From assembly GCA_046761065.1 (NCBI GenBank), contig JBHIFL010000001.1, positions 64,001 through 128,000 of the forward strand: 64,000 nt of DNA. The letters run 5' to 3'. The position numbers were made by a program, and so were the translations under genes. Position 1 is the stretch's first letter. Every line of letters starts with the position of its first letter. Below are positions 11,090 through 19,236 of the stretch, one piece after another. The stretch is from Candidatus Heimdallarchaeota archaeon. GTDB lineage: Archaea > Asgardarchaeota > Wukongarchaeia > Wukongarchaeales > JBHIFL01. Under the pieces are notes generated by a model, which saw nothing but the letters and a program-made list of their open reading frames with translations, was not told the origin of the DNA and ran no database searches.

Positions 11090-12331
11090 CTAACCCTTTG
11101 GGTATGCTAAAACTTTGAGGTTAATCGGGAGTTTAGCCACTTCTCCAACTCGTGCGCCTACTAGATAGGTAATGTTGTGTTCTAAGGCCAAATCAACGAG
11201 CCTTTGGGTAACTATGCCATCAAAAATTATGGCATAGATGGTTTTATTTTCCTTGATTTTGTTTAATTCTTCTGCTAATTTCCGTACAGGGACCTCTTTT
11301 ATTAATCCCCCATTTTCATCCAGGAAGAATCCTTTCTGCGTTCCTTGGACGATCTCGATTTGTGGTTCAAACACTGTGGGGATTTTAGGCTCTCTTAGCA
11401 TCGTTTCCGAACGCGATTTCTCTTTCATCTCTTCTGGCTTTTCCGGAGTTTTCCCGGGCGGGATAGGTTCGACTTTTTGTTTTCCAGCTTTTTGGGATTC
11501 TCCAAGGAGCTGTTCGATCGGTACACGATTCCGTAATGCTTTTGTGATTTCCTTGCGGGTAAGATCTTCTACTTCACGACCAGAGGAGGCTCGCGCAACA
11601 TAGTCGATATCAGCGACTTGCGCTAGTTCTCGCAAGATCAGATCCCCTCCGCGATCCCCATCCAGAAATGCGGTCGCTTCCTTCTTTTTTGAGAGCTCTG
11701 TAATAACAGATGGGATATTTGTCCCTTCAACAGCTACTACATTTTTATAACCATGTCTTAACAGATTGATTACATCTGCTCGGCCTTCAACGATTAAAAT
11801 AGAATCACTTTCATCAACCGTTGGACCGGCAGGGACTTTACCTTTATACCGAACAATGGATTCAATTCGTGCGCTCTTCAGAACTTCATCAACGAGTTGA
11901 GAGCTCTCAGGAGAAATATCTCCTTCCCATTTTCGTAAAATATTCGTAGCTCGCTGAATGATCTTCTTCCGCTTTGATTGGCGGACATCTTCGATCTTAT
12001 CTAAGGTTAGTTTTGCCCCACAAGGACCAACACGATCGACTGTTTCTAAAGCGGCTGCGATGATAGCAGTTTCAATTCTATCTAAAGATGATGGGATTAT
12101 AACGGTTCCAGTGGTCTTTCCACTCTGTGTGGTTGTATTCACAATGATTCGACCAATACGCCCTGTTCGTTGCATGTCTCGTAAATCCAATTCTTCACCT
12201 AGGAGCCCCTCAGTTTGACCAAAGACTGCACCGATTACATCGCTACGTTCGACGACTCCCGTTACCTCGAATTTACTATGAATCAGGTATTTTGTCGTTG
12301 AAACATCTGTAACATTAGCATTATTCGTCAC
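11090..12331 (-). CDS. dnaG: Archaeal DnaG (exosome-associated primase homologue)
   Basis: GVVERSDVIGAVFGQTEGLLG, GRIGRI, TOPRIM VEGRADV and DGDRGG, FDGIVTQRL. Confidence 0.96.
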   Translation of the reverse strand: MTNNANVTDVSTTKYLIHSKFEVTGVVERSDVIGAVFGQTEGLLGEELDLRDMQRTGRIGRIIVNTTTQSGKTTGTVIIPSSLDRIETAIIAAALETVDRVGPCGAKLTLDKIEDVRQSKRKKIIQRATNILRKWEGDISPESSQLVDEVLKSARIESIVRYKGKVPAGPTVDESDSILIVEGRADVINLLRHGYKNVVAVEGTNIPSVITELSKKKEATAFLDGDRGGDLILRELAQVADIDYVARASSGREVEDLTRKEITKALRNRVPIEQLLGESQKAGKQKVEPIPPGKTPEKPEEMKEKSRSETMLREPKIPTVFEPQIEIVQGTQKGFFLDENGGLIKEVPVRKLAEELNKIKENKTIYAIIFDGIVTQRLVDLALEHNITYLVGARVGEVAKLPINLKVLAYPKG

Positions 12332-14229: not shown

Positions 14230-14859
14230 TTAGGCTTGCGAGATATATTCAGACAACGTTTCAAAAGTTAATGGATTTCCAAGGATAATTAGGACGCCTT
14301 GAATGATGCAAAGGAGACCTAAGAAGGTTGCCACTGGTTGAAACCGCAGAATCATTGTGGTAGCTTTAGTTACGTCCTCAATAAACTTGAGGGCCAAGAA
14401 TACTAACAGGAATATAATAACCATGATTGCCCCTAGGATATATTTCATTTCAATCCCTAAAATGGTGCCAGTTACTCGATCTCCATAACGGAAGCAGATT
14501 AGTGCTGCAATACCTCCCCCTGCGACGAGACCTACCAGAGCAGCCCAAGGAATGTCCTTAAACGGTTCCATAAATAGTGCAAAGCCTACTATTATCAGAA
14601 GTGTGACTGTGAACCACCCTTGATTTAAGTATTCGTTAGTTTTGAAGATCGCAGCTGCAGTTATTAAGCCTAAAGCGCCGAAAATCCAGCCCGCATGCTT
14701 TGCAATTGTAGAAAGTGCATCGGCAATATTATCGATAAACCCTGGGAAAACATGAAGTACGTTTGAGATGAACCATGCACCTGATATTATTCCAATAATG
14801 ATTAAGACGATAGGCGAGAATTCTGCTAGGGTAGAAATATAAGTAGCAATATCCGCCAA
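14230..14859 (-). CDS. Hypothetical polytopic membrane protein (~6 TM)
   Basis: 209-aa hydrophobic ORF; GGAGG RBS upstream of the TTG start. Confidence 0.75.
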   Translation of the reverse strand: MADIATYISTLAEFSPIVLIIIGIISGAWFISNVLHVFPGFIDNIADALSTIAKHAGWIFGALGLITAAAIFKTNEYLNQGWFTVTLLIIVGFALFMEPFKDIPWAALVGLVAGGGIAALICFRYGDRVTGTILGIEMKYILGAIMVIIFLLVFLALKFIEDVTKATTMILRFQPVATFLGLLCIIQGVLIILGNPLTFETLSEYISQA

Positions 14860-14979: not shown

Positions 14980-15343
14980 GGAATGCGGGGGAGTGGGAGT
15001 TGGAATGATCTGTTGTCTAGGGCTGTTGTAGCTCGATACTAACTCTCAACTTCCTAGATGAGACGATCGCCTTTCTCAGTTGAGTTCTCCCGTATCGAGC
15101 TGCAGAAGACAGCCCCCAACAGCTTATATCTCCCGAAGGATGTGAAAAAGACGGGTTGACTCCACACTCATTGCTAGACGACCCGTCCACTCGCTTCAGT
15201 GAGAGCCCGTCCGCTTTTCCTAAGCATCTTGGTTGGACGTTAGTCTAACCAAGTTCACGAGTTTACCCCGTGACTCTAGGAAACCTCCTGATAGATTTAT
15301 TTCTCTAGCACCAGGCAAATTACTAACTCCTTCTCCTCCATCC
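14980..15343 (+). ncRNA. Unidentified large structured non-coding RNA candidate
   Basis: No ORF of 60 aa or more. About 20-bp terminal stem (14980-15003 with 15323-15343) encloses a 110-nt hairpin and several shorter hairpins. G-U pairs favour the + strand. TATA-like ttattaa near 14938-14944. Confidence 0.55.
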
Positions 15344-15509
15344 TAATAAAATTTTCTTCTGATCCTCATGAGGGACGGATTTTCAGAATCTATTAGTGAG
15401 GTAAGCCGTTATTATTCTTTAGATTCGCACTCATCCTTCAGTACACAAATCTCGCTAAGACTTAAATTAATATAGAGATTATTCATCCTTTTTGAATGAT
15501 TGAAAAGCC

Positions 15510-16508
15510 TTAAAAACAATGCGGGACTAGACGAAGGTCCGATTGATCGACTTGCATATCTGGCTCGTCTTCAAATCCAAGAAACTGATTGATCATTACA
15601 GCAGCATAATTTCCGGTTCCTACAGCCATTGCAACCTGTTGAGTAATGGCTCTAACATCTCCTGCGGCCCAAATACCCTCCACGTTAGTTTTACCGCGAT
15701 GATCAGTTATAATGGAGCCAGACTCAGTCAAAGCCACGCCAAGTTGGGCAGCCAGTTCGGAACGTGGAACGGCCATATAAGATGCAAAAAAATGTTGACA
15801 TTCAACCTGTTGCCCATCAGTAGTGATAAGGATCTGCTGTTGGCCCGGGGTTTTAATTTCCACACGATCTATAACTCCAGACATCCATTCAAACTCAGAT
15901 TGATCTAAAACTTGACGATCTGCATCGGTGAATGGTATAGAACTATCTTCTGTCATAAAAATGCGGATTCGCTTGGCAAAACGTTGGATCGATCTAGCAA
16001 CGTGCAAAGCACTTCGAACTGTCCCTACATTCACCACTAAAATGTCTTTCCCAGCTGTCTCGGGTGCTTCACAGTTTGCACAGTAGAAGCATATCGATTT
16101 CTTACCCGCGTATGGGAGCCATTTCCGCCAATCTCCTCCCACAAGTGGGTGTTTGCGGGCTACCCCGGTGGCGAACAATAGAGTTTTTCCCTGATACTCC
16201 TCTACACCTCGTTTTGATTCGGTCCAAACATAAAATTCGGGACATGTTCCTTCGATTCTAACAACATTAGCGAAACAATATATAGCTCCAAGTGCCTTCG
16301 TCTCCTCTTGGAACATTTGGAGTAATTTACGTCCTTCGATCGCGCTTTGCCCACATAGATAGTTGTGAATTGGATTCGTGATAAAATACAACGGGGAGGA
16401 TCTTCTATCAATCACCAACACGCGACGACGATGGTATGCGAGGTGTTTGGCCGCAGTCAATCCCGCAGGTCCACCCCCTATAATTAATGTGTCATATTTA
16501 TTGCTCAT
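15510..16508 (-). CDS. Thioredoxin-reductase-like FAD-dependent pyridine nucleotide-disulfide oxidoreductase
   Basis: GGGPAGLTAA, FATG, CxxC (CANC), TNVEGIWAAGD, QVAMAVGTG. Confidence 0.88.
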   Translation of the reverse strand: MSNKYDTLIIGGGPAGLTAAKHLAYHRRRVLVIDRRSSPLYFITNPIHNYLCGQSAIEGRKLLQMFQEETKALGAIYCFANVVRIEGTCPEFYVWTESKRGVEEYQGKTLLFATGVARKHPLVGGDWRKWLPYAGKKSICFYCANCEAPETAGKDILVVNVGTVRSALHVARSIQRFAKRIRIFMTEDSSIPFTDADRQVLDQSEFEWMSGVIDRVEIKTPGQQQILITTDGQQVECQHFFASYMAVPRSELAAQLGVALTESGSIITDHRGKTNVEGIWAAGDVRAITQQVAMAVGTGNYAAVMINQFLGFEDEPDMQVDQSDLRLVPHCF

Positions 16509-18564: not shown

Positions 18565-19236
18565 TTAGATTGAAACTGTTTCGCCAGGTTTCAGAATCCT
18601 AACCTCCGCCGCTTCACCTACAAGCTTTTTGAACTCCTCCGCATCTTGTTCTATCGCCGGGAAGGTATTGAAGTGACAGGGAATTGCAATCTTCGGATAG
18701 AGCATCCGGATCGCTTCTGCAGCTTCCCTCGGTCCCATTGTGTACGTCGATCCAATCGGAATCAAAACGACTTTCGGCAAGTAGAGTTTCGCAAGGAGTG
18801 CCATATCCCCGAATACCGCAGTGTCTCCCGGAAAATAGATCGGGCCTTCTGAAAGGTGAACAATAAAGCCACAAGGCATACCCCTTTCACATGAATGGAA
18901 GGCTTGTGTAAATGTGATGGGAATATTTGTTGGGGTCACAACAGTCCCTCCAATATTGCCTCCAATCGCACATTTAACCCCACCCTTCTCTGCTTCGATA
19001 GCAAGCTCATGAACTCCTATAAAACATGCATCATGTTGTTTGCAGATTGTTGCCGCATCATTAAACCCGTGATCCTCATGATCGTGTGTAACGCAAACGA
19101 TATCCACCTGCTGGATTTCTTCTACGCTTTTAAATGGGTTTGTCGGGTTAGCCGTGATCCAAGGGTCAAACAGAACTACAACTTCACTTTCTACCATGAA
19201 TGCGGCATGGCCGAGCCAAGTGATTTTCATTATCAA
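18565..19236 (-). CDS. Metallo-beta-lactamase fold metal-dependent hydrolase (UPF0173-like)
   Basis: ITWLGHAAF, DPW, THDHEDH, GGNIGG, GDT, PIG..YTMGP.EA, IPCHFNTFP. Confidence 0.9.
   Translation of the reverse strand: MIMKITWLGHAAFMVESEVVVLFDPWITANPTNPFKSVEEIQQVDIVCVTHDHEDHGFNDAATICKQHDACFIGVHELAIEAEKGGVKCAIGGNIGGTVVTPTNIPITFTQAFHSCERGMPCGFIVHLSEGPIYFPGDTAVFGDMALLAKLYLPKVVLIPIGSTYTMGPREAAEAIRMLYPKIAIPCHFNTFPAIEQDAEEFKKLVGEAAEVRILKPGETVSI

Follow-up and report, generated by a model that had tools for sequence, protein, structure and literature searches.

The closest described systems to the RNA considered here are the archaeal box H/ACA guide sRNAs Pab40, Pf7, Pho40 and Afu4 (HgcG; Muller et al. 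2008, PMC2377435), of which the three-hairpin Pab40/Pf7 RNA of Thermococcales constitutes the Rfam family HgcG (RF00064), with a gathering score of 77 bits. Experiments have established helix 69 of 23S rRNA as the target of both Afu4 and Pab40 motif 3, the site of motif 3 being P. abyssi Psi2016, that is, H. marismortui Psi1956 (PMC2377435; PMC2584109). Two conformations have been reported for Pab40 motif 2 (PMC2377435), and Psi2621 has been attributed to the homologue of stem II as well as to an alternative conformation of Pab40 (Grosjean et al., PMC2584109). In haloarchaea, stems II and III of Pf7 are represented by homologues and stem I is not (Grosjean et al. 2008, PMC2584109); for their helix 69 hairpin alternative pairings have been proposed, which would serve Psi1956 and Psi1958 (PMC2584109). 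Pseudouridylation of the uridines equivalent to those of helix 69 in eukaryotic large-subunit rRNA is guided by the H/ACA snoRNAs snR191 of yeast and U19 of human (PMC2584109). A search of the consulted collection of papers for H/ACA RNAs of the phylum studied here returned nothing relevant.

In the 64-kb stretch of archaeal DNA that we have analysed (the window), the segment 14980-15343 lies between two genes of the minus strand, which encode a 209-aa membrane protein without Pfam match (14230-14859) and a thioredoxin-reductase-like flavoprotein (15510-16508). A preliminary description of this segment had presented it as an ORF-free, GC-richer and strongly structured island, transcribed from the plus strand into an RNA of about 365 nt that would belong to a new class or would be a permuted housekeeping RNA. 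The general character of the locus is as described: the sole ORF is of 57 aa (minus strand, 15017-15190), the GC content is slightly raised (0.45-0.46, versus approximately 0.40-0.42 in the flanks), and the fold of the plus strand reaches −137.8 kcal/mol (z = −7.1 relative to shuffled sequences, versus −4.1 for the minus strand). A conserved structured non-coding RNA gene missed by standard family scans is indeed present; its strand and its class turn out to be different. We conclude with high confidence that the minus strand of this locus carries the gene of a two-module box H/ACA guide sRNA, the counterpart in this phylum of Pab40/Pf7/Pho40/Afu4 (HgcG).

The source genome is an archaeal MAG of 4.4 Mb in 234 contigs, 91% complete. 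Its RNase P RNA is found in contig 20 (193 bits) and its SRP RNA (98 bits) in the same contig as the locus, 37 kb upstream, while the element itself occurs as a single copy; since both RNAs are elsewhere and the element is not repeated, the locus is neither RNase P RNA nor SRP RNA, of which the preliminary description had found no ordered signatures, nor a MITE or other dispersed repeat. A scan of the entire window against Rfam gave no family at the gathering score, and the segment 14800-15560 gave no match even at E<=10: there were thus no partial hits and none of the half-matches expected of a permuted housekeeping RNA.

The search for homologues at the DNA level (BLAST against 40 relatives) yielded nothing useful. 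Homologues were reached through the neighbouring membrane protein, which has relatives at 72-90% identity: a search of genome contigs with this protein gave no homologue loci, and metagenome loci fetched in the same manner provided three syntenic copies of the element (L006, L007 and L008), 83-90% identical to it. Conservation among these close homologues falls off near 15007 and past ~15312, and compensatory changes are seen in several helices. The window and the three metagenome homologues were used to build a covariance model of 15010-15226 (R1), which, among 151 phylum genomes, matched 28, each of them at exactly one site. None of these sites overlaps a known Rfam family at the gathering score, and all share, when read on the plus strand, the apparent loops ACUAAC and UUCUCUC between covarying stems. 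As RNAalifold applied to MAFFT alignments of the divergent sequences recovered the upper stem only, 31 sequences were realigned with a covariance model of the minus strand (R2). This model matches 93 of the 151 genomes (58 of the 72 of high quality), as a single copy in 92 and twice in the remaining one; three families have no match at all (0/14, 0/19 and 0/4). In the source genome the sole R2 match is at 15007-15122 of the window, on the minus strand, and its score of 97 bits is the highest of all sequences.

The relationship to HgcG emerges from the distant homologues. In a permissive Rfam scan (cmscan) of six distant loci, HgcG matches were obtained that are below threshold but significant and full-length, all of them on the strand opposite to that of the plus-strand model (40.7 bits, E = 2.5e-8 in L016; 33.1 bits, E = 5.2e-6 in L012; 29.2 bits, E = 8.5e-5 in L013; 21.0 bits, E = 0.028 in L010). 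When the whole genomes of five relatives were scanned with HgcG, the best or only match was the orthologous locus in three of them (E = 8.7e-11 in G003, 1.3e-7 in G001, 4.5e-6 in G061). Overall, relatives in the phylum score 21-43 bits, all below the gathering score. In L016 and L013, cmscan aligns the hairpin homologous to the one that we designate HP3 in the window with HgcG motif 3, and the window is tied to the HgcG-matching relatives by R1, by R2 and by a common synteny with the genes for DnaG and an MBL-fold hydrolase. The preliminary description had foreseen that a match to a known family would remove the novelty of the RNA: this is what has happened, with distant homologues serving as stepping stones. 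The window RNA itself departs from the formal definition of HgcG in two respects, the gathering score and the three-motif layout, and is best filed as a diverged, two-module member of the Pab40/Pf7/Afu4 lineage.

The proposed gene extends from about 15323 to 15007 on the minus strand. Its ends are predicted, at the 5' side, from the position of a TATA-like box (ATTTTATTA, 15353 to 15345 on the minus strand) and, at the 3' side, from the end of conservation. The box is conserved in the four close homologues (minus-strand variants ATTTTATTA, ATTTTATTA, ATTTTATAA and ATTTTAGTA); as a putative promoter it would place the start of the RNA near 15323.

The module nearest to the 3' end, HP3 (15122 to 15010), corresponds to the long hairpin of the preliminary description, which is real and supported by compensatory changes in the homologues; from the R2 alignment of 31 sequences and from cmscan, it is homologous to Pab40 motif 3. 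It is closed by two outer helices (15010-15015/15117-15122 and 15020-15026/15109-15115), inside which the core (15030-15101, defined from the sequence and the 31-sequence alignment) consists of a lower stem of 10 bp (15030-15039/15092-15101) and an upper stem of 7 bp (15045-15051/15078-15084), separated by a pocket of 7+5 nt whose strands are the 5' guide GGGAGAA (15091 to 15085) and the 3' guide AGUUA (15044 to 15040). The ACA box (15029 to 15027) follows the lower stem immediately on its 3' side, at a distance of 15 nt from the base of the upper stem, and is retained by almost every one of the 31 sequences. Above the upper stem, both the sequence and its conserved motifs identify a K-turn with an apical stem (15052-15077): the tandem G.A pairs are formed by GA at 15077 and 15076 opposite GA at 15053 and 15052, the three-nucleotide bulge is UAG (15056 to 15054), and the first pair of the C-stem, G15075-C15057, is Watson-Crick in 29 of 31 sequences. 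The K-turn signatures 5' C-UGA-G and 3' (U/G)GA are conserved throughout the alignment.

The second module, HP2 (15225 to 15122), is defined in the minus-strand alignment of 31 sequences and corresponds to Pab40 motif 2 and to haloarchaeal HP1. Its outer closing helix (15122-15126/15221-15225) covaries between A-U and G-C, with G.U on the minus strand only. The lower stem (15214-15220/15144-15150) has 7 bp and the upper stem 6+3 bp; pocket and K-loop span 15151-15211, with the 5' guide GACGG(GCU) at 15211 to 15204, the 3' guide AACCCGU at 15157 to 15151, and the K-loop elements UGA and AUGA at 15198 to 15196 and 15171 to 15168, respectively. The arrangement CAC-UGA ... AUGA-GUG is conserved across the 31 sequences, in which the guides of HP2 remain constant while its stems vary. 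The ACA box (15143 to 15141) immediately follows the lower stem on its 3' side, at 14 nt from the upper stem, and has an equivalent in the other clades; the module also contains a UUCG hairpin (~15130-15141). A separate hairpin that had been proposed at 15190-15203 (CTCGC-TTCA-GTGAG) is not conserved: it is made of one strand of the upper stem together with the UGA of the K-loop. Both modules thus display the defining features of H/ACA RNAs, namely stem-pocket-stem hairpins, a K-turn or K-loop as a putative L7Ae site, and an ACA at 14-15 nt.

The additional basal helices that close each module together with its ACA box covary across the phylum. Each ACA box consequently sits within an internal loop closed by such a helix, a feature absent from the drawn structures of the Pyrococcus RNAs. 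One might see here a distinct mode of H/ACA assembly or regulation, to which, in the clade of the window, the terminal pairing discussed below would contribute, its leader resembling a fusion of both guide strands of HP3 and its trailer a pseudo-target; the RNA, instead of being a plain Pab40 copy, would have to open or would auto-inhibit its helix 69 pocket, but we consider this improbable.

The 5' portion of the RNA is peculiar to the clade of the window. Two linker hairpins (15228-15253 and 15255-15273), already recognized in the preliminary description and confirmed here by compensatory changes, contain no K-turn, pocket or ACA box; the first is missing in L008, and its non-Watson-Crick pairs in L006 and L007 are A-C on the plus strand and G-U on the minus strand. 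They are preceded by a region (15322 to 15275) that contains a stem-loop (~15276-15308) and a short stretch, GGUGCUAGAG (15312 to 15303), which aligns with the 3' half (GGUGCAA...GCAGAG) of a further module, motif 1. In clades B, C, E, F, G and H motif 1 is the 5' module, with an invariant 5' guide CGAGG, a 3' guide GCAAG, a K-turn, an ACA box, and a lower stem that covaries strongly; its guides are complementary to ...CUUGC-UN-CCUCGA... of 23S rRNA, which shortly precedes the CCUCGAUGUCGG stretch. Scanning with a model of motif 1 (R3) gave no match, whether in the window, in its close homologues L006-L008, anywhere in the source genome (91% complete), or in further two-module families (L011, L014, L019 and L029). 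In the clade of the window motif 1 appears to be lost, leaving the putative remnant and the extra linker hairpins at the 5' end.

Candidate targets of the two pockets were sought in the organism's own 16S and 23S rRNA, with G-U pairs allowed, the number of chance hits being derived from shuffled rRNA. The HP2 guides AACCCG and GACGG have a single match, at position 2752 of 23S rRNA (UGGGUU-UAGA-CCGUC), where 0.025 hits are expected by chance. The fit comprises 6 + 5 bp with three or four unpaired nucleotides, or a partial opening of the upper stem; the 5' guide pairs with the rRNA only upon such partial opening, and with one G.A mismatch. The predicted target is the peptidyl-transferase loop, UGGGUU-U-AGACCGUC, with U2758 of the organism's own 23S rRNA as the probable substrate. 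We take this uridine to be equivalent to E. coli U2586 and H. marismortui Psi2621. For HP3 there is full complementarity between the 3' guide AGUUA and UAACU in helix 69 of the organism (position 2040), and GGGAG pairs with CUCUC four nucleotides on (UAACU-AUAA-CUCUC); with 0.47 chance hits expected, this match alone is not significant. Here too the fit is non-canonical (5 + 5 bp around the four unpaired nucleotides AUAA, instead of UN), and searches of the organism's rRNA with the guides gave no site of strict UN geometry. The target would be the loop of helix 69, presumably U2044 and U2046 (E. coli 1915 and 1917; H. marismortui Psi1956 and Psi1958). One further site, CUAAC..UUCUC at ~54867 of the window, is antisense inside a 595-aa ORF and was taken as a chance occurrence.

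The protein partners of such an RNA are represented in the source genome by genes for Nop10 (C17:18653), Cbf5 with its DKCLD domain (C28:25292) and Gar1 (C9:66339). By analogy, the K-turn or K-loop capping each upper stem would be bound by L7Ae and the ACA box, 14-15 nt from the pocket, by the PUA domain of Cbf5; the two strands of the pocket would pair with 23S rRNA on either side of one uridine, and the Cbf5-Nop10-Gar1-L7Ae complex would isomerise the uridine so flanked to pseudouridine. Judging from the sequence, the most likely role of the RNA is to direct pseudouridine formation in 23S rRNA.

An alternative that must be weighed at this point is that the locus is a decaying H/ACA relic, which has lost motif 1 and whose remainder no longer guides modification: motif 1 is undetectable in the window and in the rest of the 91%-complete genome, both target fits are non-canonical, and the window gives no HgcG signal. 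We hold this to be very unlikely, as HP2 and HP3 retain every defining motif, the window has the highest R2 score in the entire phylum, and the substitutions that distinguish the four members of the clade from each other preserve pairing. Two-hairpin forms devoid of stem I are, moreover, normal in haloarchaea (PMC2584109), and are also seen in the four families without R3 match mentioned above. A functional guide RNA that has dispensed with motif 1 remains the favoured interpretation.

The assignment of the gene to the minus strand is based on the non-Watson-Crick covariation, which is all of the minus type, and on the HgcG matches, which are on that strand. In the upper stem of HP3, the 186 cells of the 31-sequence alignment read on the minus strand as 168 Watson-Crick pairs, 18 G-U pairs and 0 mismatches; these 18 cells become A-C when read on the plus strand, where there are no G-U pairs. 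This asymmetry of 18 to 0 persists even in an alignment fitted to the plus-strand model. Within the clade, all seven of the single-sequence non-Watson-Crick changes in the long hairpin are A-C or C-A on the plus strand and G-U on the minus strand, and no new G-U pair is created on the plus strand. For the minus-strand structure of the R2 alignment, 81.8% of the cells are paired, versus 65.8% in shuffles and 35-50% in slid controls; 22 of the 24 pairs have changes on both sides, and the covariation score of the structure was reached by none of 500 shuffles. The preliminary description had read the G-U pairs of the plus strand as an indication of selection at the RNA level on that strand: this argument fails with the homologues, and several of the invariant plus-strand G-U pairs are simply the ACA box at 15027-15029 forced into a helix.

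The view that the RNA is instead transcribed from the plus strand, as a ~365-nt molecule of a new or permuted housekeeping class closed by the pairing of 14987-15003 with 15323-15339, does account for several observations. The plus strand folds better than the minus strand, as noted above, and so does its terminal duplex, with an energy of −29.6 kcal/mol (−19.9 ± 3.4 when shuffled; 10 of 1000 shuffles as good), versus −21.0 kcal/mol for the minus strand (−16.3 ± 3.2; 78 of 1000 as good). Some compensatory changes affect this stem in the window, L006 and L007, and a TTATTATTAA box at ~14936 and an oligo-T at 15351-15359 could be envisioned as promoter and terminator. The complementarity at the ends of the segment is therefore genuine on the plus strand, but it is local to the clade: the stem is only partly formed in L006 and L007, is lost in L008, and is absent from all other clades. 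It is external to the conserved H/ACA core, and if the RNA runs from 15323 to 15007 the stem is largely outside of it, such that the H/ACA identification is unaffected. As to the oligo-T, its bases are those of the TATA-like box conserved on the minus strand in the four close homologues.

The features conserved on the plus strand are reverse complements of H/ACA elements: three UCAU motifs become the AUGA of K-turns and K-loops, the UGU motifs become ACA boxes, and the conserved loops become guide strands. The plus-strand sequences CCUCGA, UUGCNC, GGGUU and CCGUC resemble rRNA and SRP RNA because they are complements of guides, and so look like rRNA targets. A plus-strand H/ACA pocket was also considered, and target searches with it gave no rRNA site; SRP Alu- and helix 8-like motifs, an RNase MRP-like P4, C/D boxes and a mimic of the tRNA-Met anticodon, all on the plus strand, were set aside as reverse-complement artefacts of the guides, K-turns and ACA boxes. 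Given the strand bias of the covariation, the opposite orientation of the HgcG matches in the homologues, and the location of the RNase P and SRP RNAs elsewhere, a plus-strand RNA is exceedingly improbable. More generally, the locus illustrates how the strand can be misjudged from the fold z-score and G-U counts of a single sequence; here it was covariation that decided.

The genomic surroundings of the minus-strand guide RNA support its orthology across the phylum. The MBL-fold hydrolase and DnaG genes, which are near the RNA in the window, flank it in two further families; in four families a Trm5/TYW2 methyltransferase gene is beside it in divergent orientation, and in one complete genome the RNA closely follows the 23S rRNA and shares its strand. 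That the element acts in cis, as a 5' leader or regulatory structure of the membrane-protein gene at 14230-14859, which is downstream on the same strand by ~150 nt in a synteny kept in four close relatives, has next to no probability, as the copies of other families adjoin unrelated genes (Trm5/TYW2, PheRS beta, DnaG, MBL-fold protein, 23S rRNA), a separate TATA-like box (minus strand, TTTTTATATCGG, 14913 to 14902) stands between the RNA and the gene, and the RNA is built like a guide that acts in trans.

Compared with the described systems, the window RNA is of the same class as Pab40/Pf7/Pho40/Afu4 and has the same module order, each module carrying a K-turn or K-loop and an ACA box; its relatives are the best HgcG matches genome-wide, HP3 and motif 3 have in common the 3' guide GUUA that pairs with UAAC of helix 69, and the targets, which for the window are predicted, are in helix 69 and in the peptidyl-transferase region. 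It differs in scoring below any Rfam threshold, in the absence of motif 1 from its clade, in the extra basal helix of each module and the 5' linker hairpins, and in the 5' guide of HP3, which is GGGAGAA versus a consensus GGGUUAG, with the non-canonical fit as a result. The hairpins HP1 and HP2 of Haloferax volcanii (Grosjean et al. 2008, PMC2584109) also represent only the homologues of Pf7 stems II and III, with no stem I; their proposed targets are likewise Psi2621 of the peptidyl-transferase loop and Psi1956/1958 of helix 69 (H. marismortui numbering), and their alternative helix 69 pairings resemble the loose 5 + 5-bp fit of HP3. In comparison with these hairpins, as described, the modules of the window RNA are adjacent, with ~15 nt and a UUCG hairpin, and are clamped by outer helices. 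The eukaryotic snR191 and U19, again by description, are different in having a hairpin-hinge-hairpin-tail organization, which includes H and ACA boxes and lacks a K-turn.

This is a guide RNA of a known kind, which we do not expect to surprise a specialist, and its value is mainly one of annotation: Rfam HgcG misses the RNA throughout the phylum, while a model made for the purpose detects it in 93 of the 151 genomes, and the two-module form of the window is undetectable without the stepping-stone homologues. For the biology of the organism, the prediction is that pseudouridines are introduced into helix 69 and the peptidyl-transferase loop of its 23S rRNA under RNA guidance, and that in its clade the site near the peptidyl-transferase center served by motif 1 in other clades would be unmodified or otherwise handled.

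Each of the two H/ACA modules of the window RNA is enclosed by an extra basal helix, which is absent from the Pyrococcus HgcG consensus. In HP3 this helix is formed by window positions 15010-15026 with 15109-15122, and in HP2 by positions 15122-15126 with 15221-15225; in both cases it closes the module together with its ACA box, which consequently ends up in an internal loop. Both helices show covariation phylum-wide.

Ahead of the first module, a sequence element of the form GGCAAUGAAGGAA / GCGAUGAUGGAAU is conserved in all clades, and it is retained in the window's clade, from which motif 1, the 5' module of other clades, is absent. In the window it occupies positions 15328-15342 of the minus strand, where it reads GGAUGGAGGAGAAGG, and it is found at the equivalent place in three guide RNA loci of relatives (L010, L013, L016). 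The element may belong to the 5' part of the RNA, where it would perhaps resemble a C box, or it may instead be sequence close to the promoter. Read on the minus strand, the leader (15323-15339) is GGAGAA-GG-AGUUAG, that is, both HP3 guide strands fused, and the trailer (14987-15003) is CCAACU-CC-CACUCCC, similar to a pseudo-target of the HP3 pocket; these resemblances may reflect coincidence or a cis-acting mimic.

A recurrent gene neighbourhood can be recognized from the genes upstream of the guide RNA at loci L010, L011, L016 and L019 in relatives, and from window positions 11090-12331 and 18565-19236. In four families a Trm5/TYW2-type tRNA methyltransferase adjoins the guide RNA in divergent orientation, and in two further families the guide RNA is flanked by DnaG (Toprim) and an MBL-fold hydrolase; genes for the latter two proteins are also present in the window, a few kb from the guide RNA. 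In the complete genome G037 (locus L034, positions 1-1162 and 1504-1626) the guide RNA gene follows the 3' end of 23S rRNA on the same strand, at a distance of a few hundred bases, and it may be co-transcribed with the rRNA operon.

Outside the window, the organism's own 23S rRNA (G000:C17:20340-23453, minus strand, locus L037) contains an insertion of ~50 nt in domain V, between ...GAGCUCACAUC and AUCGACCUCGCGG..., immediately 5' of the peptidyl-transferase CCUCGAUGUCGG stretch; this insertion may represent either an expansion segment or a mini-intron. The 16S rRNA gene (G000:C1:440-2273, minus strand, locus L038) spans 1,834 nt versus 1,478 positions in the model, a difference that points to at least one insertion, or to an intron. 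The SRP RNA (G000:C1:41419-41762, locus L002) scores just 98.1 bits, narrowly passing the Rfam cut-off of 96.5: in the window's lineage this RNA is unusually divergent.
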